From: a virus
Virus record (IMG/VR): IMGVR_UViG_3300029336_000005
Reading direction: 5' to 3' (one strand)
Length of the DNA: 46,909 nt
Below are positions 7,991 to 46,909 of the stretch, piece after piece. The notes below the pieces were generated by a model. That model was not told where the DNA came from and searched no databases. It saw nothing but the letters and a program-made list of their open reading frames with translations. A program made the translations under genes and the position numbers. Each line of letters starts with the position of its first letter. Position 1 is the first letter of the stretch.

Positions 7991-8008
7991 AATAAGGAGA
8001 AAGCTGCT

Positions 8009-9397: not shown

Positions 9398-9571
9398 TCT
9401 AAGATGAGGTATACTATCAGTAGCCGCGCAGGGATTGAACTTATGATGTAAAGCTTCCTGTGTGGCTACGCACAAGTGAAGAGTGCAGACTGATTCTGTC
9501 GCGCATGAATGAAAGAGCTGCATGTTCCCGGTGGGGGCTGTTATCAGCGGCACGAGTGGACAGTCAAAGAA

Positions 9572-9605
9572 AGAGTTGGGCATAAAAACCCGACTCTCTT
9601 TTTTT
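9572..9605 (+). terminator. Rho-independent terminator ending the tail-lysis operon
   Basis: Stem agagttggg/cccgactct (one G-T pair), 8-nt loop, then cttttttt. Confidence 0.75.
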
Positions 9606-9647
9606 ACGTCAAATTACGATGTTTTAATCAGATATAGATTTACACGG

Positions 9648-9669
9648 TTAGTCACAAATTAGTCACAAA
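9648..9669 (+). repeat. Perfect tandem 11-bp direct repeat TTAGTCACAAA x2 (candidate integrase/Xis arm-type sites)
   Basis: Read directly, in the AT-rich non-coding region between the endolysin terminator and the int 3' end. Confidence 0.7.
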
Positions 9670-9845
9670 TAAAGTCTGAAAAACCGCATAAACAAAGTAC
9701 TCTTGAAGATTTTCATTAAAATTAGATTAAAGAAAATGTCTTTGCGAAATCCCTTGTAAAATGCGGAAAAGCCAGTAAAATCAAGGCTTTGCAGACTTTT
9801 GTTAGAGTGATTAAGACAGTTTAAAAATGATAAAAATAGGAACGG

Positions 9846-9866
9846 TTAGTCACAGTTAGTCACAAA
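9846..9866 (+). repeat. Second tandem pair TTAGTCACA-g-TTAGTCACAAA, same orientation, overlapping the integrase stop codon
   Basis: Read directly, ~198 bp from the first pair and preceded by the same cgg context. Confidence 0.7.
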
Positions 9867-11021
9867 CGGGACTTTTATCTTTTCAATCTCTGCCCGGAGT
9901 TCTGCTAGTGTCCTGTGACCGTACACAGCGTTCGTGACATCGTTTCCAAACGAATGTCCCAGCATCCTCTTCCGATCGTTCTCCCGGACGCCATATTTTT
10001 CACACAGAGTAGAAAAGGTGTGTCGACAATCGTGCGGTGTGTGCTTCGGGTCGCCGGTTATTTTCAAGCGTTCCAGTGTAGGGTAAAACAGGGCGTTTCG
10101 GTGTTGTGTCTGGGAATAGATGCAGAGCCTGCCGTTTTGCGTCAGGACCTTGTTCTTCGCAAACTCATATATGGACGGATGAATCGGAACGATCCTGTCT
10201 TTTCCGGCTGCGGTCTTGATGCCACCCTGGAAATATCTTTCTTCAAGATTTGTCGTAAGCTTCAGGACCTCGCCAATTCGCCAGCCGGAGTAGCACATGA
10301 TCAGAATGAGCTGTACTTCTGGATCATCGGTGTTATTCCAGAGAATTTGCAATTCCTCATCCGAAAAAGGTGTGCCATGCTCCGTATCATCATTTGCGTT
10401 AACTTTTACATATAAAGCCTTGTTTTCCGACACAATTTCTGAATAAATGGCATACTTATACATCTGTTTAAAGAGGGTTAATATAATTGCTTTGCTTTGC
10501 TTCTTAAGAGTGCATTTGTCTATTACGTCTTGCAAGTCGGGGGCTTTTAAATCTTCAAATGTGCGATTGCGCAATGTTTTACAGTTTGAGTAAGCTGTTT
10601 TGTATGATTCCATCGAGCTATAAGACGCTTTTGTTCCGTCTGGAAATTTCCATGCGTAGAATTGTTCATATACCTCTGAGAACGTCAATTTGTGCGTTTC
10701 CGGGTGTTTTTCTTCTGTGCCCTTAAATGTATTGTAGTCCGACAAAATACGGCTTATAAGGGCGTCTGCGTCCGTTGTAGGGGCAATCTCAAGTTCCTTT
10801 TCCATACCTGGCTTGTACGTTCCGGCTTTGTATGCTGTCAGAACGGCGAACCCTTTCAGATAGTCGTCAACGTAGCAGATCGCAGGCGGACGGATCGCTT
10901 TTCCTGTTGCGTCAATCGTTGCCGGTGGGTGCACTGCATAGCAGTTTCTTCGACCCTTGCCGAGATAGCGGATAGACCCGAAACTATTCGGCAATTTCGG
11001 GTATTTCTTTCTTTTTGCCAT
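9846..11021 (-). CDS. int: Tyrosine recombinase (phage integrase)
   Basis: 391 aa. The C-terminal catalytic region has WRIGE, HDCRHTF, LGHS and a Y in VYGH. RBS is aaggagga. Confidence 0.9.
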   Translation of the reverse strand: MAKRKKYPKLPNSFGSIRYLGKGRRNCYAVHPPATIDATGKAIRPPAICYVDDYLKGFAVLTAYKAGTYKPGMEKELEIAPTTDADALISRILSDYNTFKGTEEKHPETHKLTFSEVYEQFYAWKFPDGTKASYSSMESYKTAYSNCKTLRNRTFEDLKAPDLQDVIDKCTLKKQSKAIILTLFKQMYKYAIYSEIVSENKALYVKVNANDDTEHGTPFSDEELQILWNNTDDPEVQLILIMCYSGWRIGEVLKLTTNLEERYFQGGIKTAAGKDRIVPIHPSIYEFAKNKVLTQNGRLCIYSQTQHRNALFYPTLERLKITGDPKHTPHDCRHTFSTLCEKYGVRENDRKRMLGHSFGNDVTNAVYGHRTLAELRAEIEKIKVPFVTNCD

Positions 11022-13520: not shown

Positions 13521-13909
13521 CCTTGAGCGTTTACCACAATCCGATAGAAACAAGGCGTCTATTAAATAAAAAGAAACTGCTAGGGGTCTCGTCCCTAACA
13601 GCTCTTTACCAAATTTGTTTACCCTATGTACTTTGCAGGCTGACGCCACATCTGACGAGACCAAATGCTTCTTGAAGCACCTTGTCACTTTCGCAGTCTT
13701 GGTTCTGCAACATGCCTAATCGCTGACAAAACAATCAGAGCCGTCTTTGACCTGTTTTGACTGTCGAGGTATCAGTATGGACGGATTAAAAGCAAAGGGA
13801 ACAGGCAAATTCAAAAGTTGGGTCATGATAACCACTCCTTTCCTTTGCCAATAGGCATTAACTAGGATAACACAAATAAGTGGTAAACGCAACTAAAAAT
13901 AAGTAGGGG

Positions 13910-17556: not shown

Positions 17557-17899
17557 AAATAAAGGAGCTACTGGAGAGCGGGAAGTCGCGAGTATACTCC
17601 GGGGGTACGGGTATAAAAAAGCCAGGAGAGGCCAGCAGTACAGCGGAGCAAACGGTGATGCGGATGTAGTTGGCCTTCCTGGCATCCATATCGAAGTTAA
17701 GAGAAGAGAGCGTCTTAACATATACGATGCAATAGACCAGGCCAAGAGAGACAGAAAGTCGGATGAACTTCCAGCTGTGTTCCACCGCAAGAATCATTGT
17801 GAATGGCTTGTAACTATGACATTAGAGGACTGGATGCAGTTATACGGGGAATGGGAGGCTGGTTATGGATTATGTGAAGATCAGCAGGAAAATCCTTGA
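17546..17899 (+). CDS. PD-(D/E)XK Holliday-junction resolvase-like nuclease
   Basis: KGATGEREVASIL...GDADVVGLPGIHIEVKRRE (D...E-x-K pattern). Confidence 0.6.
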   Translation: MNSRNKGATGEREVASILRGYGYKKARRGQQYSGANGDADVVGLPGIHIEVKRRERLNIYDAIDQAKRDRKSDELPAVFHRKNHCEWLVTMTLEDWMQLYGEWEAGYGLCEDQQENP

Positions 17900-18626
17900 A
17901 TGGGAATGGTACACCGACATCAACACCAAGGTGCTGTTCCTACATATCCTTTTAAAAGCGAACTGGAAGCCTGGAAGGTTCCAGGGGACAGACGTTCCGA
18001 GAGGATCGTTTGTCACATCTCAGCAGAATCTTGCTCTGGAAACTGGCCTCACACTTAAGAATGTGAGAACGGCACTAAAACATCTGGAAAATACAGGCGA
18101 GGTGGCAGTCAACCGACACCCGAAATTCAGCATAATTACAATAAAAAACTATGATAAGTATCAGTCAGGTGGCAGTCAAGTGGCAGTCAACGGGCAGTCA
18201 GGTGGCAGTCAAGTGGCAACAATAGAAGAAGGAAAGAAGGAAAGAAGGGAAGAATATAATAAATCTCCTAAAGGAGATTATGAGAGTAGAACTCCGGAAA
18301 GCAGCATCTACGCCACGATTCGTGAATTATACAATTCCGTTTGTGGGTCGTATCCCCGCCTGGTAAAGATGTCTGATGCAAGAAAAAAGGCGATCAATGC
18401 CAGATTGAAGACAGGATATACTCTTGACGACTTCCGAAAACTGTTTGAAAAAGCAGAAGCTTCTGACTTCATGAAAGGAGCCAACAAACGTAACTGGTCA
18501 GCTACTTTTGACTGGATGATTTGCGATTCTAACATGGCGAAAGTGCTTGACGGGAACTACGATCCAAGAGATCAGGGAGGGGTGAAGGATGAATCAGAAC
18601 CAGCAAATTCAGTCCGACTCTGGTGA
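17865..18626 (+). CDS. Replication initiator / replisome organiser (winged-helix N-terminus, conserved phage C-terminus)
   Basis: MDYVKISRKILEWEWY...LETGLTLKNVRTALKHLENTGE. It contains the iteron array and is followed by the DnaC-like loader. Confidence 0.7.
   Translation: MDYVKISRKILEWEWYTDINTKVLFLHILLKANWKPGRFQGTDVPRGSFVTSQQNLALETGLTLKNVRTALKHLENTGEVAVNRHPKFSIITIKNYDKYQSGGSQVAVNGQSGGSQVATIEEGKKERREEYNKSPKGDYESRTPESSIYATIRELYNSVCGSYPRLVKMSDARKKAINARLKTGYTLDDFRKLFEKAEASDFMKGANKRNWSATFDWMICDSNMAKVLDGNYDPRDQGGVKDESEPANSVRLW
18162..18216 (+). repeat. Five tandem 11-bp iterons CAGTCA(G/A)(G/A/C)(T/G)GG inside the initiator gene (candidate ori); an extra copy at 18101-18112
   Basis: Read directly: cagtcaggtgg cagtcaagtgg cagtcaacggg cagtcaggtgg cagtcaagtgg. 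Translated as QSGGSQVAVNGQSGGSQVA. Confidence 0.75.
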
Positions 18627-24406: not shown

Positions 24407-24504
24407 TCACATTCTTATTAGGATTCACCCTTGGAATCATATTCGGAGTAGTCGGTCTTGCATGTGCAGCAATCATGTACGACAAACACCACCCAGACGA
24501 ATAG
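24403..24504 (+). CDS. 33-aa single-TM peptide (MITFLLGFTLGIIFGVVGLACAAIMYDKHHPDE)
   Basis: RBS gaggagga upstream, and the hydrophobic core was read directly. Confidence 0.35.
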   Translation: MITFLLGFTLGIIFGVVGLACAAIMYDKHHPDE

Positions 24505-24514
24505 AAAGGAAGCT

Positions 24515-25423
24515 ATGAGAATACAACTTATAGATGTTGATGGACATAATTTTCCGAATTTGCCATTGATGAAAATATCGGCATGGCATAAGGGAAAAGG
24601 TGACTCCGTAGAATGGTACGACCCATTAACAGCATGGATAAATCCACCAGATAAGGTATATATGAGCAAGGTATTTACATTTACGCCGGATTATCCGCAT
24701 CCTGTATGTGCAACGGAAATCATAAAAGGTGGCACGGGATATGAGTATCCGTCTGGTGGACAGTTGCTACCGGATGAAATTGAACATATTTATCCTGATT
24801 ATAGTCTTTATCCAGAATTATGCAAAGATACCGCTTATGGCTTTCTTACAAGAGGATGCCCTAGAGGGTGCGATTTTTGTATCGTAAAAGACAAAGAAGG
24901 AAAGAAAAGCTGTAAAGTAGCTGATTTATCTGAATTTTGGAATGGGCAAAAGAACATTATCTTGTTTGATCCGAACATGTTCGCTTGTACAGAATGGAAA
25001 AGTCTATCTGAACAGTTAATAGACAGTGAAGCATATATAGATTTTTCACAAGGCTGCGATATTCGGATTATGACCGAAGAAAAGGCGAATTACATTAAGC
25101 AAATGAAAATAAAACAGATTCATTTTGCGTGGGACAGATATGAAGACAAAGGCATAATTATCCCGAAATTCCAAATGTTTAAAGAAATAACTAATTGGGA
25201 TCGCAGAAAGATGTCTGTATATGTGTTAACAAATTTCAACACCACATTTGAACAGGATCTGGAAAGAGTATATACACTTCGGGATTTAGGGTATTGGCCT
25301 TACATAATGATTTTTGATAAGCAAAACACAAAGCCTACTGATTCTGTCAGAAGATTACAGCGATGGGTAAATATGAGGGCTACGTTTGAAAGTGTAAAAA
25401 AGTTTGAGGATTATACAGGATAG
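24515..25423 (+). CDS. Radical SAM enzyme of unknown function
   Basis: GCPRGCDFC (CxxxCxxC cluster). The N-terminus MRIQLIDVDGHNFPNLPLMKISAWHK resembles a B12-like or Rossmann-like lead-in. ATG 24515 follows gaaagga. Confidence 0.7.
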   Translation: MRIQLIDVDGHNFPNLPLMKISAWHKGKGDSVEWYDPLTAWINPPDKVYMSKVFTFTPDYPHPVCATEIIKGGTGYEYPSGGQLLPDEIEHIYPDYSLYPELCKDTAYGFLTRGCPRGCDFCIVKDKEGKKSCKVADLSEFWNGQKNIILFDPNMFACTEWKSLSEQLIDSEAYIDFSQGCDIRIMTEEKANYIKQMKIKQIHFAWDRYEDKGIIIPKFQMFKEITNWDRRKMSVYVLTNFNTTFEQDLERVYTLRDLGYWPYIMIFDKQNTKPTDSVRRLQRWVNMRATFESVKKFEDYTG

Positions 25424-28155: not shown

Positions 28156-28195
28156 AAACATGTACCACAACTTTTCTGCTGACCTGTGATAGAAT
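28156..28195 (+). promoter_or_regulatory. Late-type promoter copy 1: AAACATGTACCACAAC, 18 nt, TAGAAT (TGa extended -10)
   Basis: The 16-mer is identical to 34110-34125 and 40257-40272 with identical spacing to the -10. It lies right after a terminator and before the packaging genes. Confidence 0.7.
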
Positions 28196-28248
28196 ATACT
28201 CAGAAGTGTTACTATGGGGTTTTATAGCCGATTGGAGGCAAATTCAAT

Positions 28249-34109: not shown

Positions 34110-34149
34110 AAACATGTACCACAACATTTATTGAAAGAGGTGATATACT
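34110..34149 (+). promoter_or_regulatory. Late-type promoter copy 2: AAACATGTACCACAAC, 18 nt, TATACT (TGa extended -10)
   Basis: Same motif and spacing as copies 1 and 3. The -10 box abuts ATG 34150. Confidence 0.6.
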
Positions 34150-35379
34150 ATGCTTAGTCCTGAATATTTACGCCGGATAACAGAGGGCAGTGAACAGATT
34201 GCAGAAGAACTGCATCAGTATATCATCTCTGAGATTGTATCGCGGATGATGGCAAGAATCGGCAGAGGTGAGGACTATATTCTGACCAATGCGGATGCAT
34301 GGAGAATCAGAACATTACAGGAATCCGGTGAGCTGCTAGAAGACATTCTGGCAGAATTATCCAAATATACAAAACGTGAACAACAGGAACTCCTTGAAGC
34401 GTTTGAAGATGCCGGAATCACTGCAATGGAGTATGATGATAAAGTATACAAGGCGGCGGGGCTAAGCCCTGTACCGCTTGAGCAGTCCCCGGCTATGATA
34501 AGACTCATGGAGCGGAATATGCTTGCGACTATGGGTGAGTGGAAGAACTTCACACGGACAACCGCAAGCGTCGCTCAAAGGCTCTATATTGAGCAATGCG
34601 ACCTTGCATATAATCATGTGATGACTGGGGCGGTTGGGTATACGCAAGCCATCAAAGAGGCAGTTAACAATGTTGTGAGTGATGGTGTTACTGTCACATA
34701 CCCATCTGGCAGAAAAGACACGATTGAAACAGCAGTTGCACGTTCCGTCAGAACCGGTGTGGCACAGGCTACGGGAGATATATCCCTCAAACGCATGGAA
34801 GAAATGGACTGGGATTTAGTTCTGGTCAGTGCGCACATAGGAGCGAGGACGGGCGACGGCGGTCAGAATCCCGGAAATCACTCATGGTGGCAAGGCAAGA
34901 TATACTCTCGTTCTGGCAAGAGTAAGAAATTTCCGCCGTTCTCATTGACCGGATATGGGACAGCAAGCGGACTGTCAGGGGTCAACTGTCGGCATAGCTT
35001 TGGGGCAAGTGATGGAGAATTCAACCCCTATGCAGAACTATCAGCACAGGATAAAGCTGATAAAGGCAAACAGTACGAAAAGGAGCAACGGCAACGTACT
35101 TATGAGCGAAGAATCCGCAAAACGAAGAGAGAAGTTCTCGGAATGCAAGCGGCGGTTAATAACTGCAAGGACGAACAGGCAAGATTTGCACTCCAGCAAG
35201 ACCTTGACCGGAAGTCTTATCTTTTGCAGAAACAAAATGCTGCATATAAAGATTACTGCAATCAAAACGACCTAAGAGAGCTGCAAGACCGGCTCATGAT
35301 TGCTAAATGGAACCGCCAGAACGCCGCTAAAGCCAGAGGAGCGGCAAAACGGTATAAAACAGCAAAGGGGATTGACTGA
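34150..35379 (+). CDS. Minor head protein (Mu F / SPP1 gp7 family)
   Basis: GVNCRHSF motif, a basic coiled C-terminus, and position after the portal region. Confidence 0.75.
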   Translation: MLSPEYLRRITEGSEQIAEELHQYIISEIVSRMMARIGRGEDYILTNADAWRIRTLQESGELLEDILAELSKYTKREQQELLEAFEDAGITAMEYDDKVYKAAGLSPVPLEQSPAMIRLMERNMLATMGEWKNFTRTTASVAQRLYIEQCDLAYNHVMTGAVGYTQAIKEAVNNVVSDGVTVTYPSGRKDTIETAVARSVRTGVAQATGDISLKRMEEMDWDLVLVSAHIGARTGDGGQNPGNHSWWQGKIYSRSGKSKKFPPFSLTGYGTASGLSGVNCRHSFGASDGEFNPYAELSAQDKADKGKQYEKEQRQRTYERRIRKTKREVLGMQAAVNNCKDEQARFALQQDLDRKSYLLQKQNAAYKDYCNQNDLRELQDRLMIAKWNRQNAAKARGAAKRYKTAKGID

Positions 35380-35765
35380 TGGACAGATGGGAATATTACA
35401 ATCCGAATCCTGCCGGGAATCGAGTCGGAGATTGTGCTGTCCGGGCAATATGCAAAGCAACCGGTTTTGACTGGGAAACGGTATTCGCCGGATTAATGAT
35501 ACAGGCGTGTGCTCTGTCAGATATGCCAAGCGCAAATTATGTCTGGGGAGCGTACCTCTATAAGCATGGATACAGACGCAAACTGATTGAACAGTCAGAG
35601 CGATATATCTATACAGTCAACGATTTCTGCACAGACCATCCGACAGGTACGTACATCCTCTGCATAGACGGTCATGTAGTGACGGTACAAGATGGCAAAT
35701 ATTTTGACACATGGGATTCCGGTAATGAGATCCCGGTATATTACTGGGAAAAGGAGAATAAATGA
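35379..35765 (+). CDS. Conserved hypothetical protein with a Cys/His pair (possible papain-like fold)
   Basis: NPNPAGNRVGDCAVRAI ... IDGHVVTVQDGKYFDTWDSG. ATGA overlap with the minor head gene. Confidence 0.3.
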   Translation: MDRWEYYNPNPAGNRVGDCAVRAICKATGFDWETVFAGLMIQACALSDMPSANYVWGAYLYKHGYRRKLIEQSERYIYTVNDFCTDHPTGTYILCIDGHVVTVQDGKYFDTWDSGNEIPVYYWEKENK

Positions 35766-36067
35766 GCATATCAGAATTTGTACAGATTTTCCTCTCTATC
35801 TGTGGAGGGGTGTCTATTGTCGGAGGAGCGGCGGCTGTAATCTTTAAGTGGATTACCCCGGCGTTTCGACTTAATAAGCGAGTAGAGACACTGGAAGAAC
35901 ATGACAAACGAGATTACGAGAGTCTTCAGAGGATTGCAGAGCGAGATTCATTAATTCTGGAAGTGCTGTCGACCATGTTGGACAGTCAGATTAGTGGGAA
36001 TAATGTCGAGGAGTTAAAAAAAACAAAACAGAAGCTCACGGAGTATCTTGCACAGAATCAGCGTTAA
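35762..36067 (+). CDS. Single-TM coiled-coil protein
   Basis: TM IFLSICGGVSIVGGAAAVIF followed by a helical charged region. Confidence 0.4.
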   Translation: MSISEFVQIFLSICGGVSIVGGAAAVIFKWITPAFRLNKRVETLEEHDKRDYESLQRIAERDSLILEVLSTMLDSQISGNNVEELKKTKQKLTEYLAQNQR

Positions 36068-36084: not shown

Positions 36085-36291
36085 ATGCTCATGAAATTAT
36101 ATGTGTTCACAAAGAAAGATATAGACAGGTTCTTGATAGAGTGTAATTTTACACCGGATGAAGAAAAGCTGTTCCGGCTGAGATGCCAGGAACGCACTCT
36201 TGAATACTGCGCTGAACAGATGAATGTGAGTATATCCACGGCGAAACGGTTAAGCCGCCGGGTAAACAATAAAATAATCAAAGTATGCTAA
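36085..36291 (+). CDS. Small sigma-70 region-4-like HTH protein (candidate late transcription factor)
   Basis: FTPDEEKLFRLRCQERTLEYCAEQMNVSISTAKRLSRRVNNKI. The start may be the second ATG at 36091. Confidence 0.55.
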   Translation: MLMKLYVFTKKDIDRFLIECNFTPDEEKLFRLRCQERTLEYCAEQMNVSISTAKRLSRRVNNKIIKVC

Positions 36292-36297
36292 AAGTAA

Positions 36298-36330
36298 GGA
36301 GAGGATATTTTTACCCTCTCCCATTTTTTT
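36298..36330. terminator. Bidirectional terminator between convergent genes
   Basis: Stem ggagagg/cctctcc followed by cattttttt on the plus strand. Confidence 0.7.
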
Positions 36331-37030
36331 AACAAAAATCTTCTTTTACAACCCTTTCAAGTAGATTTATCACGTATTCTGGTGGAGTTCGTTTACCGCC
36401 CTCCCAATTTTCAATACTCCTCTTAGGAATACCGTATTTTTCAGAAAAAGCTTGCTGCGTGAGTCCAGATAACGTTCTAATTTCGTGAAAATCGAGAGGA
36501 TTTGAAGAAACTTTTTCAGGAAATACATCCTCTTCTCTTACCTGATATGTGAAGAATCCCATCGAGGATGGAAGAATTCTAAAATAAAACTTTTCATCGT
36601 TATCTTCTTCTATCCAGGTTTGCTGTAAAAATATTTTTGGACACCATTCTTCTGCTGCAAATAGTTCATCCGTGTCAGAATAAACAAAGTAAGAACATAA
36701 ATCACCTGTACTAGCTTTTATTCTTTTCACTTCATCATAGATAAATTTTGTTCTGACGTATCGTACTACGCTAAGTACCTGTTCTATACTAAGATCCGGA
36801 AACAAAATTTCAATTTGCTTATAAGTTTTACTCCATAGCCACATATGATATTTATCATCTAATTCCACTGGCGTATCAATGTAACCGTCGCCACGAGCTG
36901 ACAAGAGATGGTACACAAAGCTAGTTATCTCTTTATCATTTGGAAATAGTAAAAGATTTGACTTTTCCTGATCCTCAAGATCTTGTTTTACCATGTCTAA
37001 AAACTTTTCATATTCATATTTTTTAATCAT
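36329..37030 (-). CDS. Two-domain protein: unknown N-terminal domain plus a C-terminal MqsA/HigA-like XRE HTH
   Basis: C-terminus IRTLSGLTQQAFSEKYGIPKRSIENWEGGKRTPPEYVINLL. AT-rich and antisense to the late operon. Confidence 0.65.
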   Translation of the reverse strand: MIKKYEYEKFLDMVKQDLEDQEKSNLLLFPNDKEITSFVYHLLSARGDGYIDTPVELDDKYHMWLWSKTYKQIEILFPDLSIEQVLSVVRYVRTKFIYDEVKRIKASTGDLCSYFVYSDTDELFAAEEWCPKIFLQQTWIEEDNDEKFYFRILPSSMGFFTYQVREEDVFPEKVSSNPLDFHEIRTLSGLTQQAFSEKYGIPKRSIENWEGGKRTPPEYVINLLERVVKEDFC

Positions 37031-37031
37031 T

Positions 37032-37484
37032 TTATTTTTCTCCTTTCTTTTCTTTTCCGTTGTAGTGTTTTAATATGCTATAGAAATAGTCTTCACAATA
37101 GCAACCGCGTTCTTTACTGAGTATTGCATATAAGCTGTCGTGCGGATTCCTTGGTTCTATGGCGTATTCGCGATGATTAATAAACCAGCTTGCTTCTGTA
37201 ATGGTGAATAAAATATTTACGGTTCTTTTTACTCTTTCTAATCTTTTGACGCGGCTATTAACTCTGTGATATTCAACAAGACTGTTTCCATACTCGATCA
37301 TCTTCTTACGAATATCCTCAGCCCAGGCAATCTGTTTCGGACTCCCAACCAGTTCTGGTAATTCTTTACACATACCTTTTACTTCCTTCCATGCTTTCTT
37401 AAGACCGGAGGAAATAGACATTCCAGCTTTCTTAACTAACTCCCATGCCCTTTTCATGATTGCTGATAAATTATATTTTTTCAT
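37032..37484 (-). CDS. Hypothetical protein, first gene of the antisense cassette
   Basis: 150 aa with motifs IMKRAWELVKKAG, LKKAWKEVKG and GSPKQIAWAEDIRKKM. RBS aaggagga. The stop abuts the start of the next gene. Confidence 0.55.
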   Translation of the reverse strand: MKKYNLSAIMKRAWELVKKAGMSISSGLKKAWKEVKGMCKELPELVGSPKQIAWAEDIRKKMIEYGNSLVEYHRVNSRVKRLERVKRTVNILFTITEASWFINHREYAIEPRNPHDSLYAILSKERGCYCEDYFYSILKHYNGKEKKGEK

Positions 37485-37525
37485 ATCTTTTTCCTCCTTG
37501 ATTTCTTGTTCCTCTTTCTGATATT

Positions 37526-37554
37526 ATAATACCACCCAGTGGGTGATATGTCAA
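37526..37554 (-). promoter_or_regulatory. Near-consensus sigma70 promoter with an embedded palindromic operator, driving the antisense cassette
   Basis: Minus strand reads TTGACA, 17 nt, TGgTATTAT. The spacer contains CACCCA-n-TGGGTG (37533-37545). Confidence 0.7.
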
Positions 37555-37631
37555 TACTTTTTTGACACTTTCTTGAACTTTTTAGATTGATGTATCTATG
37601 CAAAAATATAATCAGAAAGGTGGTGCGTAAA

Positions 37632-38102
37632 ATGGCATTATATAACAATCCTTATCAATATAGTTTTGGTGTTCCGGGGCAAATGAATCAGTTCCAACAA
37701 CAGCCTGTCCAGATACCAGCTCAACCAGTACAGCAACCCCAACAGAATAATAATGGTATCCTGTGGGTATCCGGCGAAGTCGGTGCAAAATCCTATCTGG
37801 TAGCACCCGGAACAAGTGTTTTACTGATGGACAGTGAAAGTGAAAAATTCTTTATAAAATCCACAGACGTTTCCGGTATGCCACAGCCATTACGGACGTT
37901 TGAATACCACGAGGTAGGCACTCAGATGCCACCTAAACAGCCTGTTCAAAATATGGACAGTAAATACGTCACCAGACAGGAATATGACGATTTAAAGGGC
38001 AAATACGAAGCTATCATAAACCGATTAAATTCTTTTTCTGAACCTGTTAGAACTAATACCGCACAGGAATCGGCGGTCAAGGGAGGAAATGCAGATGAGT
38101 AA
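37632..38102 (+). CDS. Q/P-rich N-terminus plus a small beta-rich domain; unknown function (cassette gene 1)
   Basis: NQFQQQPVQIPAQPVQQPQQNNNG, then GILWVSGEVGAKSYLVAPGTSVLLMDSESEKFFIKSTD. Confidence 0.5.
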   Translation: MALYNNPYQYSFGVPGQMNQFQQQPVQIPAQPVQQPQQNNNGILWVSGEVGAKSYLVAPGTSVLLMDSESEKFFIKSTDVSGMPQPLRTFEYHEVGTQMPPKQPVQNMDSKYVTRQEYDDLKGKYEAIINRLNSFSEPVRTNTAQESAVKGGNADE

Positions 38103-38316
38103 TCCATTATTTAACACCCTCGGTGGTGGGATGCTGCAGGGAAACGGGCCAATGCAGATGATACAGCAGTTTATGCAGTTTAAGCAGAATTTCAAGGGAG
38201 ACCCGAAGGAAGAAGTCCAGAAGATGTTACAGTCTGGGAAGATTTCTCAGCAACAGCTTAATCAAGTTCAGCAGATGGCGGGACAGTTTCAACACATGTT
38301 GAAAGAAATGAAATAG
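38095..38316 (+). CDS. Q/M-rich 73-aa protein (cassette gene 2)
   Basis: MQMIQQFMQFKQNF...QQQLNQVQQMAGQFQHML. ATG 38095 lies 8 nt after gggagg. Confidence 0.45.
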   Translation: MSNPLFNTLGGGMLQGNGPMQMIQQFMQFKQNFKGDPKEEVQKMLQSGKISQQQLNQVQQMAGQFQHMLKEMK

Positions 38317-38369
38317 TACATTACAATCTGGCCAGATTGATGTAAATACACAATAAAGGAGATTATATT

Positions 38370-39149
38370 ATGGATGGAAATTATAGCTTAGCAGATATTG
38401 CCGCTGCTACTGGAAACGGTAGAAATAATGACGGCATGTTTGGCGGAGATGGTGCATGGTGGCTTATCGTGCTTTTCTTATTCGTATTTTGTGGATGGGG
38501 AAACAACGGCTGGGGCAATAATGGCAACGGCGGCGGATATGCAGCCACAGCAGCTACTCAGGCGGACATTCAGAGAGGATTCGATAACTCCGCAGTAATT
38601 AGCAAGCTTGACGGAATCAATAGTGGCCTGTGTGATGGATTCTATGCCATGAATAACGGTATGCTTACCGGTTTTAACGGAATCAATACAAACATCATGC
38701 AGACCGGCTTTGGAATCCAGCAGGCAATCAATGCTGATACTGTAGCAAACATGCAGAATACAAATGCTTTACAGGCTCAGCTTGCGAACTGTTGCTGCGA
38801 GACCCGGGAAGCTATCCAGGGCGTGAACTACAATATGGCACAGAACACCTGTGCATTGCAGAACACCATGAACAGTAACACAAGAGACATCATTGATAAC
38901 CAGAATGCAAATGCGAGAGCTGTTTTAGATTATCTTTGCAACGAAAAGATTTCTAACCTGCAGGCTGAAAACAATGACCTCAGACGTGCCGCTTCTCAGG
39001 ATCGCCAGAGTGCACTGCTTACAACTGCAATGGCTTCTCAGACACAGCAGCTCATTAATGCGATTAATCCGGCACCGATTCCGGCTTACCAGGTACCGAA
39101 CCCGAACACATATTACGGATGCGGATGCAACACTGGATGTAATTGCTGA
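38370..39149 (+). CDS. Single-TM N/Q/G-rich protein with Cys clusters (cassette gene 3)
   Basis: TM AWWLIVLFLFVFCGW, then GWGNNGWGNNGNGGG, ANCCCETRE, and a C-terminus YYGCGCNTGCNC. Confidence 0.5.
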   Translation: MDGNYSLADIAAATGNGRNNDGMFGGDGAWWLIVLFLFVFCGWGNNGWGNNGNGGGYAATAATQADIQRGFDNSAVISKLDGINSGLCDGFYAMNNGMLTGFNGINTNIMQTGFGIQQAINADTVANMQNTNALQAQLANCCCETREAIQGVNYNMAQNTCALQNTMNSNTRDIIDNQNANARAVLDYLCNEKISNLQAENNDLRRAASQDRQSALLTTAMASQTQQLINAINPAPIPAYQVPNPNTYYGCGCNTGCNC

Positions 39150-39213
39150 TAACTTCATATCGAGAGTATCTTTCGATTGATTCGAATGTCGGCTTATGCC
39201 GTATTACACAGAG

Positions 39214-39237
39214 GGGCAGGCTGAGACCTGTCCTTTT
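39214..39237 (+). terminator. Weak internal terminator/attenuator within the cassette
   Basis: Stem gggcagg/cctgtcc (one G-T pair), loop ctgaga, then ttttgtg. Confidence 0.4.
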
Positions 39238-39260
39238 GTGATATGAAAGGGGTAAAAATT

Positions 39261-39683
39261 ATGGCAGAATTTACAAATGTAGCTGCTCAGACCGTAGCAG
39301 CAAAAGGAAATGTAGCTTTTTCAAATACAGCAGTTAAAGGTTCTAACTGTATTCAGCACAGAGAGGGAAGCGGAATCATCACCCTGAGAGGACTTACTAA
39401 CCAGTGCAAAGCGAGATTCTTCGTGGATTTTTCTGGTAATATCGCAATTCCAACAGGCGGTACTGTTGAAGCTATTTCTCTGGCTATTGCAATCTCTGGC
39501 GAACCTGTATTATCTTCACAGATGATCTCCACACCGGCAGCAGTAGACCAGTACAACAATGTGTCCTCTGGCATTTATATTGATGTACCTCGCGGATGCT
39601 GCGTTAATATCGCAATAGAGAACACAAGCGATCAGGCAATTTCTGTTGCGAACGCAAACATTGTTGTGACTAGAGAAGCGTAG
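39261..39683 (+). CDS. Predicted all-beta (jelly-roll/BclA-C-terminal-like) protein (cassette gene 4)
   Basis: Alternating hydrophobic pattern IITLRGL...ARFFVDFSGNIAIP...AISLAIAISG...IYIDVPRGCCVNIAIEN...NANIVVTR. The fold call is by eye only. Confidence 0.4.
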   Translation: MAEFTNVAAQTVAAKGNVAFSNTAVKGSNCIQHREGSGIITLRGLTNQCKARFFVDFSGNIAIPTGGTVEAISLAIAISGEPVLSSQMISTPAAVDQYNNVSSGIYIDVPRGCCVNIAIENTSDQAISVANANIVVTREA

Positions 39684-39694
39684 GAGGTGTGATT

Positions 39695-40249
39695 ATGAGA
39701 GACATTAAGGATTTATGTGCAAGAATCGAAGATGAACTTTCCAAAATCGCCGACAGTGGACTGACTACCGGAAATCTGGAAATGACATACAAACTGATTG
39801 ATATGTACAAAGATATCAAGAACACTCAGTACTGGGATAAGAAAGTAGAGTACTACAACACTGTCCTTGATGAGATGCGTGGCGGATACAATGACGATTA
39901 CAGTGAACGCGGAAGAAAGCGCGACAGCATGGGGAGATACAGCTCAAATGATGGCAGAATGATGCCGGATTACGACCGGGGCAGTTCTTATGCCAGACGT
40001 GGTGAACATTATGTCAGAGGGCATTACAGCCGTTCTGACGGACGAGATGCTTATGACGACTACATGACGCAGAAACAGAGTTATCGTTCCGGAAAATCTG
40101 AGGACTGCAAGAGAAAAATGCTTGCCGCTCTGGAGGAACATCTGGACGAACTCACAACAGAAATGAGCGATATGTCCAAGGACGCAGAGTGCCGGGAAGA
40201 ACGTGATCTTGTCAAGAGATACGTGGAAAAACTCCGGGATATGCTCTAA
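39695..40249 (+). CDS. Helical protein with a central R/S/Y/D/G-rich disordered tract (cassette gene 5)
   Basis: YSERGRKRDSMGRYSSNDGRMMPDYDRGSSYARRGEHYVRGHYSRSDGRDAYDDY, flanked by helical ends. Confidence 0.45.
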   Translation: MRDIKDLCARIEDELSKIADSGLTTGNLEMTYKLIDMYKDIKNTQYWDKKVEYYNTVLDEMRGGYNDDYSERGRKRDSMGRYSSNDGRMMPDYDRGSSYARRGEHYVRGHYSRSDGRDAYDDYMTQKQSYRSGKSEDCKRKMLAALEEHLDELTTEMSDMSKDAECREERDLVKRYVEKLRDML

Positions 40250-40256
40250 TTAGCCA

Positions 40257-40296
40257 AAACATGTACCACAACTTTTTGGATACTTTGTGGTAAAAT
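40257..40296 (+). promoter_or_regulatory. Late-type promoter copy 3: AAACATGTACCACAAC, 18 nt, TAAAAT (TGg extended -10)
   Basis: Same motif and spacing as copies 1 and 2. Upstream of the leader RNA, tRNA and head genes. Confidence 0.7.
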
Positions 40297-40302
40297 ATAT
40301 TC

Positions 40303-40590
40303 ATAGGGAAGATTCGTAAGTGGTTGACGCCACTTGACATAGACATTTTTTTTCATTGATTCCTCCTTTCTTGGGCACGTGTCCTTAACAGAAACAGGTT
40401 CGAGCGGAATCTGGAGGTTGAAAAGCGGATGCAATTTCCGACACGCGCCATTACTGTCTATATGACTTGCTCGCTCGCATAGACAGTACGCGCCTCCTTG
40501 TAAAAGGTAGATGGGCGGACAGACGCCCGAAACAACTCGTGGCAGGCATGACACGTAAAACACCTTGCTAACCCGGGAATCCGGGTTAAA
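40303..40590 (+). ncRNA. Candidate structured leader RNA (~290 nt, no plus-strand ORF) between late promoter 3 and the tRNA
   Basis: Hairpins read directly: aagtgg/ccactt; cgcg..tactgtctat/atagacagta..cgcg (10+4 bp); gggcg/cgccc; acccgg/ccgggt. Possible long-range pair acgtgtc (40377-83) with gacacgt (40550-56). Confidence 0.3.
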
Positions 40591-40662
40591 GGCAGGATGG
40601 AGAAGTGGAATCTCGCAAGGTTCATATCCTTGAGAACGGCGGTTCGAATCCGTCTCCTGCAA
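40591..40662 (+). tRNA. tRNA with anticodon CAU (Met-type; could be elongator Met, initiator-like or lysidine-Ile2)
   Basis: Hand-folded cloverleaf. Acceptor ggcagga/tcctgca (G1-A72 unpaired), U8, D arm gaga-agtggaa-tctc, anticodon arm caagg-ttCATat-ccttg, variable agaac, T arm ggcgg-ttcgaat-ccgtc, discriminator A. No encoded CCA. Confidence 0.8.
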
Positions 40663-40737
40663 TTACCCTGCCAGTGGTCTAACTGGCTTAATCCATACCT
40701 GCGGCGGCAGGTCAATAAACACGACCAGGAGGATATT

Positions 40738-41370
40738 ATGCAGAAACTTATTGACACATTAAAATCATTTGGAATCGAAATCCCGGAGGACAAACAGGCA
40801 GATGTGAAAAAGGCACTCTCTGAGCATTATAAAAATGCTAAAGAAGTAGCAAAAACTCTGTCGAAAGTCGAGGGTGAACGTGATGACTGGAAAGTACGTG
40901 CGGAGACGGCAGAAGAAACTCTGAAAGGTTTTGACGGTATCGACCCGGCGAACATTCAGACGGAGCTTGCTGGATGGAAGAAAAAAGCCGAAGATGCAGA
41001 GAAAGAATTCAATGCAAAAATCTACGACCGTGATTTTTCAGATGCACTCAAAGCGGCACTCGATGATGTTAAATTTTCCAGTGAAGCTGCAAAGAAGTCT
41101 GTTATGGCAGACATTAAGGAAGCAGGATTGAAGCTGAAAGATGGTAAAATCCTTGGACTGAACGACTTGATCGAACAGATGAAGCAGTCTGACGCGTCTG
41201 CTTTTGTGGATGAATCTCAGCAGCAGGCTCAGCAGAATCAGGCAAGATTTACCACTCACGTTGGACAGCAGCAGACACCGGGAAGCATGACGAAAAAAGA
41301 TATCGAAGCGATCAAAGACCCGTCCGAGAGACAGGCTGCAATCGCTCAGAATATCCAGTTATTCCAGTGA
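40738..41370 (+). CDS. Scaffolding protein (phage GP20-like)
   Basis: ATG after ccaggagga. Helical and acidic (DDWKVRAETAEETLKGF, AEDAEKEF). Immediately precedes the capsid gene. Confidence 0.7.
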   Translation: MQKLIDTLKSFGIEIPEDKQADVKKALSEHYKNAKEVAKTLSKVEGERDDWKVRAETAEETLKGFDGIDPANIQTELAGWKKKAEDAEKEFNAKIYDRDFSDALKAALDDVKFSSEAAKKSVMADIKEAGLKLKDGKILGLNDLIEQMKQSDASAFVDESQQQAQQNQARFTTHVGQQQTPGSMTKKDIEAIKDPSERQAAIAQNIQLFQ

Positions 41371-41446
41371 TTTTTACACCGACTATACACCAGAGTATAG
41401 CCGCTAACCCAATACCTTAACAATTATGGGTAGAAAGGATTTTTTT

Positions 41447-42616
41447 ATGCCAGCAAAAACAAATCTTATCATGACTAATGATATTCAGGTCACAGCACGT
41501 GAGATTGATTTTGTTACCAGATTCGAAAGAAACTGGCAGCACTTACGTGACATTCTGGGTATCATGAGACCTATCAAAAAACAGCCGGGTGCTGTACTCA
41601 AGTCCAAATACGCAGAGGGTACATTACAGAGCGGAAATGTTGGTGAGGGTGAGGAAATCCCTTACAGCAAGTTTACCGTAAAAGAAAAGACCTATGCGGA
41701 AATGACTATCGAGAAGTACGCAAAGGCTGTATCTATCGAAGCAATCAAGGACCACGGTTATGAGAACGCTGTTCAGATGACCGATGATGAATTCCTTTTC
41801 CAGCTTCAGACTGATGTTACCGGAAGATTTTACGACTATCTGAAAACCGGTACACTTACTTCCACAGAAACTACATTCCAGATGGCTCTGGCAATGGCTA
41901 AAGGCCGAGTAGAGAACAAATTCAAGCAAATGCACAGAAATGCGACTGGCGTTGTTGGATTTGTCAACATTCTGGACGTATATGAATATCTCGGAGCAGC
42001 TGAGATTACCATTCAGAACCAGTTCGGATTCCAGTACATGAAAGATTTCATGGGCTTCAATACCATCTTCCTGTTATCTGACAGTGAAATCCCACGTGGG
42101 CAGGTTATCGCTACTCCTGTTGAGAACATTGTTCTGTACTATGTAGACCCGAACGAATCTGACTTCGCAAGAGCAGGACTTGTATATACTGTATCTGGCG
42201 AGACAAACCTGATTGGATTCCACACTCAGGGCAACTACCACACCGCAGTATCCGAAGCGTTTGCGATTATGGGACTTACTCTTTTTGCGGAATACATTGA
42301 CGCAATCGCAGTAATCACCATTGACGAAACACCAACGCTTGGCACTCTGACAGTAAATTCCGTGGCTGGAACAGAAAGCGGTGATACAAAGATCACTGTA
42401 AATCCGGCTAAAGAAAATGCCAACAACGTATATAAATACAAAGTTGCAGCAGACGCAGTAACTGTCGGATATGGACAGAATCTCAGAAACTGGAGCACTT
42501 GGGATGGAAAAGCCGATATCACAGCGACAACTGGACAGAAGATCACGGTGGTTGAGTGTGATGGAACATACAAAGCACTGAATGCCGGAAGTGCAAGCGT
42601 AACAGCAAAATCATAA
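41447..42616 (+). CDS. Major capsid protein with a C-terminal Ig-like domain
   Basis: Position after the scaffold, ~390 aa. The C-terminus TLTVNSVAGTESGDTKITVNPA...KITVVECDG resembles Big_2-type decoration. The alternative start at 41426 has no RBS. Confidence 0.75.
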   Translation: MPAKTNLIMTNDIQVTAREIDFVTRFERNWQHLRDILGIMRPIKKQPGAVLKSKYAEGTLQSGNVGEGEEIPYSKFTVKEKTYAEMTIEKYAKAVSIEAIKDHGYENAVQMTDDEFLFQLQTDVTGRFYDYLKTGTLTSTETTFQMALAMAKGRVENKFKQMHRNATGVVGFVNILDVYEYLGAAEITIQNQFGFQYMKDFMGFNTIFLLSDSEIPRGQVIATPVENIVLYYVDPNESDFARAGLVYTVSGETNLIGFHTQGNYHTAVSEAFAIMGLTLFAEYIDAIAVITIDETPTLGTLTVNSVAGTESGDTKITVNPAKENANNVYKYKVAADAVTVGYGQNLRNWSTWDGKADITATTGQKITVVECDGTYKALNAGSASVTAKS

Positions 42617-46423: not shown

Positions 46424-46909
46424 CCGCCTATGAGCTTCCCACCTCACTAAATATAAGTGGGGTGGATTTTTCTATCAGGACAGATTTCCGAGCGATCATT
46501 GATATTCTCATTGCTATGAATGACCCAGAGTTAGACGAACAGGCGAAAGCAGTTGTTATGCTACAGATCCTGTTTGAGGACTGGCAGAGTATACCGGCTG
46601 AATGTCTGGATGAAGCTTGTCAGAAAGCATCGGAGTTCATCGACTGCGGACAGTTGGACGATAATCCGAACCACCCGAAACCCCGTTTGATGGACTGGGA
46701 GCAGGATGGAGACATGATCGTGCCGGCTGTAAACAAGGTTGCCGGCAAAGAAATCAGAGCCGTACCGTATATGCACTGGTGGACGTTCTTCGGGTACTTT
46801 ATGGAGTCTGGCGAATGCCTATTCAACACAGTTGTTGGAATCCGGTCGAAAAAGGCAAAAGGTGAACGCCTGGACAAATGGGAAAAGAAATTCTATCAGG
46901 AAAACAAGA
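46420..46909 (+). CDS. N-terminal part of the Gp15-like tail assembly chaperone (continues at 1..206)
   Basis: ATGA overlap with the upstream gene. The ORF is open to the window end and in frame with 15..206 after circular closure. Confidence 0.7.
   Translation, partial: MTAYELPTSLNISGVDFSIRTDFRAIIDILIAMNDPELDEQAKAVVMLQILFEDWQSIPAECLDEACQKASEFIDCGQLDDNPNHPKPRLMDWEQDGDMIVPAVNKVAGKEIRAVPYMHWWTFFGYFMESGECLFNTVVGIRSKKAKGERLDKWEKKFYQENK
46787..46909. repeat. Terminal overlap, copy 2 (identical to 1-123)
   Basis: Same 123-nt string as the window start. Confidence 0.95.

Follow-up and report, generated by a model that had tools for sequence, protein, structure and literature searches.

Five genes beside the capsid genes of a temperate siphovirus as the probable core of a mobile accessory module of gut phages

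What kind of system is formed by five co-oriented genes that lie between the packaging and capsid genes of a temperate siphovirus, and does it belong to the virion? The question is raised by IMG/VR virus record IMGVR_UViG_3300029336_000005, a stretch of 46,909 nucleotides that we refer to as the window. It is a complete, circularly permuted genome of 46,786 bp, as positions 1–123 are repeated at 46787–46909, and it encodes a ParB-methylase, large terminase, portal, minor capsid protein 2 (PF06152), tape measure, tail protein, endolysin and integrase. A preliminary description had grouped genes 1–5 (37587–40249) as a low-complexity cassette and had speculated about a virion layer, a mimic of the spore surface, or a device for exclusion or lysis timing. 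Our analysis indicates that the five genes very probably form the core of an accessory module that is self-contained, moves horizontally and is carried by tailed phages of gut anaerobes, and that they are not a part of head assembly.

Conservation, mobility and dispensability of the five genes

The five co-oriented open reading frames (ORFs) and the features that had been quoted from them (GWGNNGWGNNGNGGG, CCCE, YYGCGCNTGCNC and EHYVRGHYSRSDGRD) are all present. Two extents had to be revised: the ORF of gene 1 stands, but its likely start is ATG 37632, behind the ribosome-binding site (RBS) AGAAAGGTGGTG, rather than TTG 37587, and gene 2, Q/M-rich as described, encodes 75 instead of 73 amino acids. 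Gene 4 starts at ATG 39261, the point at which its PHROG profile also starts. The label of a Q/N/G/Cys-rich cassette suits genes 1–3, whose composition is biased (gene 1, Q p 3e-5; gene 2, Q p 2e-9 and M p 1e-5; gene 3, N p 6e-9 and C p 1e-3), but neither gene 4, which encodes an ordinary globular protein, nor gene 5, whose bias is towards R, D and Y. All five genes match PHROG families of 'unknown function' (E 1e-26 to 1e-63), and the homologues of each form hundreds to thousands of clusters (genes 3 and 4 each >7,900 at 90% identity, gene 1 ~1,000). Among ~60 relatives with major capsid proteins (MCPs) that are 95–98% identical, the ratio of non-synonymous to synonymous substitutions (dN/dS) was low for every one of them (Table 1); the values for MCP and scaffold were 0.044 and 0.068. 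As profile matches, homologue clusters and low dN/dS coincide, the ORFs are genuine genes rather than chance, and they are under purifying selection as strong as that on the capsid gene. Their GC content (0.441–0.445 at 38–40 kb) shows no anomaly compared with the flanking late genes (0.43–0.47).

Module membership was defined by clustering the same-strand neighbours of gene 3 in 95 loci. The five genes recur as a unit in ~90 further loci of phages and prophages: the full order from gene 1 to gene 5 was found in 36 of 96 sequences, and gene 1 accompanies gene 3 in nearly all. The recurrent order is c11 (a small transmembrane (TM) protein), protein B, protein A, gene 1, gene 2 or its substitute g2b, gene 3, gene 4 or its substitute g4b and gene 5, followed by c10, c12 or the scaffold gene. 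A unit of five genes, as first proposed, is therefore too small, as the module often adds A, a TM protein and B, all of which lie upstream in the window.

The gap between packaging and capsid genes turned out not to be specific to the cassette, since the arrangement of minor capsid gene, module and scaffold gene occurs in only ~17 of 95 loci. In ~19 loci, the cassette lies between the endolysin gene and an opposite-strand tyrosine or serine integrase gene with a repressor gene. Other copies follow the gene of a receptor-binding protein (RBP) or, in virulent Clostridium perfringens phages, lie among early genes between antirepressor and Gam/Erf genes. One 147-kb contig carries the cassette directly after the integrase gene and attP, at the end of the prophage and beside a host metA-type gene, and there arm-type repeats, a hairpin with a T7 run, then TGTGTAAAAAT and an RBS precede it (L012). 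The cassette thus has no fewer than five distinct genomic settings, and its carriers include genomes of sipho-, myo- and podovirus type. Over 20 kb, locus L011 has only genes 3 and 4 in common with the window (80–81% amino acid identity). When distances were compared across 44 loci, the genes correlated modestly, most strongly genes 1 and 5 (rho 0.60). Taken together, L011 and these correlations indicate that the module is mosaic gene by gene. A special co-inheritance of genes 3 and 4, at which L011 hinted, was rejected, as their correlation is only 0.25.

These contexts bear on two alternatives. The genes might encode a virion-associated structure, with gene 3 as fibre or stalk, gene 4 as C1q-like knob and genes 1, 2 and 5 as chaperones, or they might encode packaged internal or ejection proteins that insert into the membrane of the next host. 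We consider this rather unlikely. The ~17 loci, including that of the window, in which the module lies in a late unit between minor capsid and scaffold/MCP genes are in its favour, as are some loci in which it follows tail or RBP genes, and phages often have decorations that they can dispense with and distal domains that can be swapped. However, no virion docking partner is transferred with the module into the sipho-, myo- and podovirus-type genomes that carry it. It is also found amid early recombination genes, in virulent C. perfringens phages as well as in Bacteroides phage C3_41T2LP, and elsewhere adjoins the integrase gene with putative start signals of its own. The second alternative is defence or abortive infection against competing phages, with gene 3 as a membrane-disrupting effector, gene 4 or g4b as an exchangeable sensor and genes 1, 2 and 5 as regulators. 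Prophage-mediated defence genes are often located between endolysin and integrase genes, and the slot between the endolysin and the integrase/repressor genes is the commonest context of the module outside the head genes (~19 loci). It is also autonomous and has its own helix-turn-helix (HTH) protein. We return to this idea below with the hairpin behind gene 3.

Some close relatives of the window lack much of the cassette. Three independent deletions were found in relatives with identical MCPs: L165 lacks genes 1–4, L127 lacks genes 1–3 and most of gene 4, and L125 lacks genes 2 and 3. At these sites, B is joined to gene 5 (L165, 7040–7789), the last 52 amino acids of gene 4 remain (L127, 6929–7650), or genes 1 and 4 are fused (L125, 6486–7242). 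Among cultured C. perfringens phages, 17DYC, XP41-N3 and CPD1 carry the cassette and phiCP13O does not. The flanks of phiCP13O are 96–98% identical to those of vB_CpeS-17DYC, with unrelated DNA in place of the 2.9-kb block of gene 1, g2b, gene 3 and g4b; both were isolated as virulent phages (PMC3118219, PMC10353432). The deletion variants and the phiCP13O replacement argue against a core role in capsid assembly. That the genes form a core virion layer, one of the first suggestions, is very unlikely for a module that is portable across genome positions and missing from close relatives, and plaque-forming relatives without the cassette also count against a virion-associated structure more generally.

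Relatives of gene 3 in bacterial genomes are mostly found in prophages of Lachnospiraceae, Oscillospiraceae and other Clostridia, the closest match being to Lachnospira intestinalis (77%). The host labels Collinsella, Paludibacteraceae and Staphylococcaceae were judged unreliable, as they belong to phage-sized contigs of mismatched GC content in bins of metagenome-assembled genomes; a 557-kb Prevotella scaffold was kept as a credible carrier outside the Firmicutes. An analogous cassette is present in phages of Bacteroidota, e.g., the crAss-like cr116_1 and the cultured Bacteroides phage C3_41T2LP, in which it follows YqaJ, RecT and resolvase genes. In this cassette, a B-like HTH protein (E 2.7e-4) precedes gene 3 (E 3e-40 to 4e-51), behind which come, in this order, a Cys protein rich in beta structure, a protein that combines a small beta domain with a coiled coil, a short R/D/Y/E-rich protein and an HExxH 'PolyVal' peptidase (c12 profile, E 4.8e-5). 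In C3_41T2LP, c12 carries the annotation of a PolyVal metallopeptidase; this HExxH protein ends both of these cassettes and 16 of the Firmicute type, and is missing from the window. Depositors labelled the crAss-like relatives of gene 3 'spike' or 'viral fiber', which would suit a virion-associated structure.

Predicted structures of the proteins

Gene 3 has a short acidic N-terminal tail, one hydrophobic helix (WWLIVLFLFVFCGW), Gly repeats and a 175-amino-acid N/Q-rich body, with one proline. The helix comprises 12–15 hydrophobic residues flanked by W and G and is followed by GFGG-type repeats; helix and repeats were found in 91 family members. Alignments A3 and A7 contain the invariant columns CCC, AASQ and P-x-P-[IV]-P-A-Y, followed by a C-terminal Cys cluster, and the N-terminal tail often bears S-x-x-D-[IV]-A-A-x-T-G. 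The family, with 8–16 cysteines per protein, forms 2,109 clusters at 50% identity, all of ~230–300 amino acids and without fusions. The N-terminal flank of the helix holds more acidic residues (1.6 vs 0.14 on the other flank), and K+R counts are equal. As this flank is acidic and the products of genes 1, 2, 4 and 5 have no signal peptides, gene 3 is probably a single-pass membrane protein in N-out/C-in orientation, and assembly would take place on the cytoplasmic face. Pfam scans of 32 gene 3 homologues gave no consistent weak family.

Two modifications of gene 3 were considered and rejected. For a double-glycine leader that is cut by protein A, S-x-x-D-[IV]-A-A-x-T-G occurs in at least three variants, with or without A. 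For a radical-SAM modification of the Cys tail, ORF 24458–25423 lies 13 kb off and has no Pfam radical-SAM or SPASM signal. This ORF matches PHROG 9298 'radical SAM domain protein' at E 1e-113, yet has no Pfam match at E <= 0.01, and the PHROG label may be unreliable. Genes for HNH/I-HmuI-type homing endonucleases lie directly 5' of gene 3 in two phages that are unrelated and belong to different phyla, in L008 (6178–6729; Dulem virus 33) and in L176 (3880–4500; Bacteroides phage C3_41T2LP), so that gene 3 may be a homing target.

The strongly hydrophobic, TM-like helix speaks against a virion-associated structure and raises the alternative of an accessory to lysis or egress, in which the membrane protein, together with its partners, would adjust the triggering of holins or contribute to envelope disruption when infection ends. 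The membrane would then be the common target, and the module often lies just downstream of holin/endolysin genes (in cr116_1, ~1 kb after the lysis genes), accompanied by small TM proteins of BhlA/XhlA-like layout (XhlA only at E 0.13). Yet five to eight genes are excessive for lysis timing, gene 3 is much larger than holins, cassettes also occur in early regions, and the lysis genes of the window (7547–9397) are 30 kb away. Nor is there a lipoprotein partner, and hence no spanin pair: this candidate was rejected as no lipobox ORF was found on either strand at 37401–40300 and the lysis genes are not adjacent. A part in lysis is thus a poor candidate for the role of the module.

Gene 4 had been described as a stand-alone jelly-roll of the BclA/C1q type, with which the AlphaFold2 (AF2) model and Foldseek agree. 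The model is an all-beta jelly-roll (pLDDT 70.8, pTM 0.66), and its matches in the PDB range from E 1.6e-7, for the C-terminal domain (CTD) of F-BclA, to 3e-5, with TM-scores of 0.69–0.74 (9h38, 1wck, 7r1m, 8d02). They comprise the CTDs of F-BclA and BclA, TNF ligands, C1q-like proteins and the stand-alone exosporium proteins ExsFA/BxpB, at 10–15% identity. The best viral matches (BFVD) are stand-alone proteins of ~140 amino acids from uncultured gut phages (TM-score ~0.8), followed by C1q fibre knobs. At the sequence level, no Pfam or NCBIfam match was found at E <= 1, a profile built from 30 diverse homologues retrieved nothing from the PDB sequences, and the 140 residues contain no GXY collagen repeats. 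By analogy to these folds, the protein is presumably trimeric. Its conserved cysteines are Cys30, Cys49 and the internal pair Cys113-Cys114.

In about a third of the loci, gene 4 is swapped for g4b, an unrelated Cys-rich beta protein with a conserved N-terminal CxxxCxxC and an internal CC. Homology between the two was rejected (hhalign probability 0.7%). Two g4b proteins had no Pfam match at E <= 1, including DUF3992, and the g4b profile finds nothing among PDB sequences. L011 and L012 have an extra gene of 215 amino acids (9351–9998) between the hairpin behind gene 3 and gene 4, and, a few kb downstream on the opposite strand, genes for LPD29 and LPD11 domain proteins, which are polyvalent-protein-associated.

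The fold of gene 4 can be read in two further ways. C1q-domain viral proteins are typically fibre tips, which supports a virion-associated structure. The top structural matches, in turn, are exosporium proteins (BclA CTD, ExsFA/BxpB), as would suit a spore-coat or exosporium mimic, that is, prophage proteins built into the spore surface of the host. The lack of signal peptides, as in coat proteins assembled by the mother cell, the Cys-, Q-, Y- and G-rich composition, and the mostly clostridial hosts would fit as well, and the CC motifs and proline-rich peptide recall ENA and ExsF docking (PMC12357932). This early proposal is now disfavoured and seems to us very improbable, as virulent C. perfringens phages carry the cassette (PMC3118219), and a lytic phage of the non-sporulating Bacteroides and crAss-like phages have an analogous one. 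The cassette is also present in the Prevotella scaffold, lies in a late lytic transcription unit in the window and shows no sequence-level kinship to any coat family.

For gene 1, the AF2 model contains the disordered Q/P tail and small beta domain that had been expected: a Q/P/Y/N-rich disordered tail at residues 1–40, a four-strand beta domain at 43–91 and a C-terminal helix at 115–133 (pLDDT 61 overall, 79–91 in the folded parts). Foldseek gave no significant match for it, the best being SAS-6/PAXX heads at E 0.17. Of all partners, gene 1 accompanies gene 3 most constantly (86 of 95 loci). The product of gene 2, with 23% Q and 13% M, is predicted to be helical; the gene was found in 52 loci, and a second M/Q-rich family, g2b, occupies its slot in 37. 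A Met/Gln-rich holdase would suit a protein that is kept soluble until ejection, as a virion-associated structure might require. Gene 5, present in 76 of 95 loci, has conserved N- and C-terminal helices around an R/Y/S/D/G-rich disordered centre (RRD-SxGRYSRDGG; alignment A8).

The compositions of genes 1 and 5 suggest another alternative, a condensate or assembly factory in which gene 1, through its prion-like tail, and gene 5, through its R/Y-rich centre, would phase-separate on the gene 3 anchor and so concentrate replication or assembly. Their sticker compositions are complementary, they show the strongest co-variation in the module, and in two lineages the cassette lies early, beside recombination genes. 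On the other hand, no nucleic-acid-binding domain was found, the gene-1-like proteins of Bacteroidota phages have no Q-rich tail, and the jelly-roll and the cysteines would be left unexplained, which makes such a factory highly unlikely.

The internal weak terminator of the preliminary description is real and stronger than claimed. Its 14-bp stem lies at ~39207–39241 between genes 3 and 4, in a region with a folding energy of -30.1 kcal/mol (z -5.65) that is near-invariant in close relatives although the flanking dS is 0.4–0.6. All eight distant cassettes that were folded, including those of C. perfringens and Bacteroides phages, have a GC hairpin and U-run right behind gene 3, with differing stem sequences. 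Alignment A9 of the stem has 12 consensus pairs, of which 3 show compensatory changes. We predict that the hairpin is a conserved terminator or attenuator, and its conservation implies that the products of genes 1–3 would be made in excess over those of genes 4–5. Such an excess of upstream genes is the pattern of operons that encode a major structural subunit together with minor subunits, such as the pap pilus operon.

For defence or abortive infection, an attenuator that favours the effector over the sensor would be the wrong way round if the effector is toxic. The Gly-rich TM segment could form pores, and a variable 'head' subunit on a conserved anchor would suit a sensor. Against this stand the low-complexity, structural type of composition, the absence of any enzymatic or nucleotide-sensing domain and the blank PADLOC result (see below), and we regard a defence function as quite unlikely.

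Upstream partners and transcription units

Protein A, found with the cassette in more than half of the loci, has invariant Cys19, His99 and Asp110 (alignment A4), which suggests a minimal papain-like enzyme. It had no Pfam, NCBIfam or PDB sequence match, and Pfam scans of 28 homologues gave no consistent weak family. The predicted peptidase A, together with c12, recalls the processing of packaged proteins (PMC5512222), a point in favour of packaged virion proteins. In the window, the slot of c11, a family found in 17 loci, is held by the small membrane protein, whose tail is probably helical. Protein B, which accompanies the cassette in 42 loci, some of them outside head modules, is a candidate regulator; its matches to Sigma70_r4 (E 0.006) and TIGR02937 (E 1e-4) are both below the curated cut-offs.

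Table 1. Positions of the cassette, its upstream partners and the predicted signals in the window
Feature	Position	Strand	Description
Putative late promoter repeat, copy 2 (AAACATGTACCACAAC...TGATATACT)	34110..34156	+	opens late unit from minor capsid gene toward cassette; D3 repeat
Protein A	35379..35765	+	128 amino acids; phrog_3754; with cassette in 56/95 loci; directly after minor capsid gene
Small membrane protein	35762..36067	+	101 amino acids; N-terminal TM helix, charged tail; dN/dS 0.034; no family match
Protein B	36085..36291	+	68 amino acids; sigma-70 region-4-like HTH; phrog_1190 E 2.7e-6
Hairpin with flanking T/A runs	36297..36322	.	directly 3' of B; terminator-like on both strands; -13.6 kcal/mol, z -2.9
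Antisense pair (233-amino-acid HTH_3 protein, 150-amino-acid protein)	36329..37484	-	HTH_3 E 1.8e-5; variable insertion between B and gene 1
-10-like TATAAT (37607–37612) and RBS AGAAAGGTGGTG (37614–37625)	37607..37625	+	upstream of gene 1
Gene 1	37632..38102	+	156 amino acids; phrog_21718 E 2.8e-38; dN/dS 0.069
Gene 2	38089..38316	+	75 amino acids; 14-nt overlap with end of gene 1; phrog_22984 E 2.4e-26; dN/dS 0.043
Gene 3	38370..39149	+	259 amino acids; module anchor; phrog_16490 E 2.8e-55; dN/dS 0.073
Two hairpins between genes 3 and 4	39188..39241	+	small CGGC/GCCG hairpin and 14-bp GC-rich stem including U-run
Gene 4	39261..39683	+	140 amino acids; phrog_20016 E 7.6e-61; dN/dS 0.038
Gene 5	39689..40249	+	186 amino acids; GTG start; phrog_28802 E 1.6e-63; dN/dS 0.028
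Putative late promoter repeat, copy 3	40257..40303	+	downstream boundary of cassette; opens scaffold/MCP unit; D3 repeat

The antisense pair between B and gene 1 is an insertion and not a member of the cassette. It is missing in 50 of 60 informative loci of the lineage of the window, and homologous versions were found in only 5–7 of 60 close relatives. The gap between B and gene 1 measures 91 nt in 25 loci and is diverse, at 0.6–2.3 kb, in ~30 (36292–37631 in the window; loci L096–L175). This junction is an insertion hot spot amid the late genes, and its cargo is mostly antisense, e.g., HTH proteins and small ORFs. The antisense pair of the window has a strong promoter-like site of its own (minus strand 37554–37526, TTGACA-17-TATTAT with TG), and the hairpin behind B was listed on the minus strand in the terminator scan. 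The upstream intergenic region that had been ascribed to the cassette (37485–37631) does exist here, but only owing to the inserted pair.

Relatives without the insert have a different hairpin with a T7 run at the same place behind B, and even the minimal junction of 91 nt carries a hairpin and T-run. A block TATGCAAAAATATAA(T/C) before the RBS of gene 1 is kept in relatives with and without inserts, the window having a perfect TATAAT; the region upstream of gene 1 contains no -35 element. The late-promoter box was found at none of 62 junctions between B and gene 1. Because of the hairpin and T-run, the conserved -10-like block and the absence of the late-promoter box, genes 1–5 look like a transcription unit of their own. 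No terminator was seen after gene 5.

The putative late promoter is a 47-nt element, AAACATGTACCACAAC...TG(T/G)GxTAxAAT (repeat family D3), with three direct copies, the first at 28156–28202 and the others as in Table 1. They split the late region into three units, of which the second ends with the five genes, the third copy beginning 8 nt past the stop of gene 5. The upstream box AAACATGTACCACAAC is conserved and the -10 extended. As there is no -35 hexamer, the element may depend on a phage-encoded activator or sigma-like factor, and B is a candidate for its recognition.

Further elements were observed elsewhere in the window. Between the third copy and the scaffold gene lie a RAGATH-21 RNA (40374–40449; 90 bits vs a gathering score of 70.3) and a tRNA-Met (CAT; 40591–40662). 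Their placement indicates that the start of the 257-amino-acid ORF 40597–41370 is spurious and that the scaffold starts at ATG 40739, behind an AGGAGG RBS. Because of the tRNA, unrelated phages, one of them of 636 kb, match only this stretch in blastn searches. The MCP (41426–42616) has a C-terminal S-layer SbsC-type Ig-like domain (PF18316, E 2.6e-16, residues 313–394), a built-in surface decoration. A full-length FuFi-1 RNA lies on the minus strand in the lysogeny/early region (13571–13730; 136 bits vs a gathering score of 59.6). In the replication-region ORF 17865–18626, an 11-nt unit (CAGTCAGGTGG/CAGTCAAGTGG) is repeated five times head to tail at 18162–18218; these units may be iterons of an origin.

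A possible membrane-tethered structure and its relation to known systems

As expected from the preliminary description, the five genes had no structural-family match: Pfam, PHROG function labels, NCBIfam and PDB sequences were all blank, and neither profiles nor the structures modelled for genes 1 and 4 matched ordinary head-decoration, scaffold or internal-virion proteins. The same tools found the scaffold (PF06810, E 1.6e-21) and the MCP (phrog_544, E 2e-46). The lack of a match to any virion protein family also counts against a virion-associated structure. PADLOC gave no match at E <= 0.1 for A, the TM protein, B, genes 1–5, c10 or c12, PDB sequences searched with profiles for A, g4b and gene 4 yielded nothing, and no functional description was found in the literature on the cassette, its motifs or the cultured phages that carry it. 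As no curated library, sequence-matched solved structure, defence catalogue or paper that was found describes the module, we rate it as outside the known kinds of system; gene 4 is its one member with an assignable fold class.

The explanation that we favour, somewhat short of an even chance as a whole, is that the module builds a structure at the cell envelope. Its structural and membrane part, a self-assembling, membrane-tethered structure, comes close to an even chance. Gene 3 would be the major subunit, whose proline-poor N/Q body, CCC, PxPIPAY and Cys cluster might oligomerise, cross-link or bind metal, and the Met/Gln-rich gene 2 product could act as a holdase that keeps the hydrophobic segment of gene 3 soluble. 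Gene 1, with its sticky Q/P/Y tail and small beta domain, and gene 5, with its helices and R/Y-rich tail, may be adaptors, and the TNF/C1q-like jelly-roll of gene 4 an exchangeable minor head or cap subunit. The hairpin and U-run behind gene 3 would supply the products of genes 1–3 in excess over those of genes 4–5. The site of action would be the envelope of the infected or lysogenic cell, because the membrane is the sole element common to all hosts and phage types that carry the module. As the module moves among sipho-, myo- and podovirus-type genomes and among phyla without a virion partner, its target should be universal, and the cytoplasmic membrane is the obvious candidate. The specific role that we favour, a superinfection barrier or receptor masking, is a guess and, taken by itself, rather unlikely.

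Several observations weigh against this explanation. The placement in a late unit between capsid genes in the lineage of the window fits a virion-associated product equally well, and viral fibres often end in C1q-like knobs. Exclusion proteins known so far are mostly single small genes, and the cassette matched no defence family in PADLOC. The topology of gene 3 is read from charge bias alone, with equal K+R counts on the two flanks, and we infer both its membrane location and the interactions among the proteins. The helical or coiled-coil periodicity of the gene 3 body was not significant (p ~0.1), and consensus scans of the window for promoters and terminators did not rise above shuffled controls.

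A bolder possibility, which we consider improbable, is a portable exosporium-like kit in which a major subunit born at the membrane, a jelly-roll like that of ExsFA/BclA and sticky low-complexity adaptors are made in the cytoplasm. It would become Cys-cross-linked once lysis exposes it to oxygen and form a protective or adhesive coat on released virions or cell remnants. If true, bacterial viruses would have an equivalent of occlusion bodies or spore coats, and this would explain why phages of strict anaerobes in two phyla retain the module.

The likeness to exosporium proteins is a lead and not a claim of membership. Like ExsFA/BxpB, gene 4 is a stand-alone TNF/C1q jelly-roll of ~140–170 amino acids, and, like the exosporium proteins that are assembled in the mother cell, the soluble cassette proteins have no export signal. 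ENA connectors have CC motifs, and ExsF docks a leader ending in ...ALPPIYIPTG (PMC12357932); the CC and CCC motifs of the cassette and its proline-rich peptide PAPIPAYQVPNP may be analogous. In Ena, an N-terminal connector with a CC motif cross-links the subunits; the N-terminal CxxxCxxC and internal CC of g4b and the internal Cys113-Cys114 of gene 4 are candidates for such cross-links. Unlike exosporium proteins, the cassette has no sequence-profile relation to them, no collagen-like stalk and no sporulation context, and its partner protein has a TM helix; unlike Ena (DUF3992), gene 4 and g4b have no DUF3992 profile match.

In its genomic behaviour, the cassette resembles morons, a term that does not denote function. 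It is present or absent in near-identical phages, at varied sites that often lie between lysis and integrase genes, has putative start signals and hairpins of its own, and is dispensable for plaques. However, it is far larger and more constant than typical morons, with 5–8 genes in fixed order across phyla, shows no GC anomaly, and also occurs in virulent phages and in early regions. Viral fibres with C1q knobs, such as the collagen-like ones of phages and giant viruses, share with it a long, probably helical stalk protein topped by a head of the C1q type, a distal module that can be exchanged, small accessory proteins and dispensability. The head fibre of phi29 and the fibritin of T4 are dispensable fibres. 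In the cassette, by contrast, one polypeptide would form the stalk and another the head, the virion-binding domain gives way to a TM-like helix with Gly repeats, collagen repeats are absent, and the location does not follow that of tail or head genes. The hairpin and U-run right after the presumed major-subunit gene 3, whose position is kept across distant cassettes, may be the counterpart of that in pap-type operons, although the cassette is unrelated to pilins, ushers and sortases. Like the Dar system of P1 and the polyvalent sets with zincin MPTase (PMC5512222), it is multi-gene, dispensable and near capsid genes and has the putative peptidases A and c12. It differs from them in lacking their typical domains and in its low-complexity or structural rather than enzymatic character; the window has no MPTase, and its minor capsid protein (PF06152) is not MuF.

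The analysis also corrects the local annotation, with a longer module that includes A, the TM protein and B, an antisense insert at a hot spot and a putative attenuator behind gene 3. Strong selection combined with dispensability and free exchange is typical of modules for conflict, between phage and host or between phages, or for environmental survival. The cassette is one of the larger conserved blocks of 'dark matter' in human-gut phages, found in those of Bacillota and, as analogues, in those of Bacteroidota, including crAss-like phages. Its chemistry, which combines a predicted TM anchor, Gly repeats, Cys clusters, a TNF-like head and prion-like tails, is unlike that of any characterised phage system.

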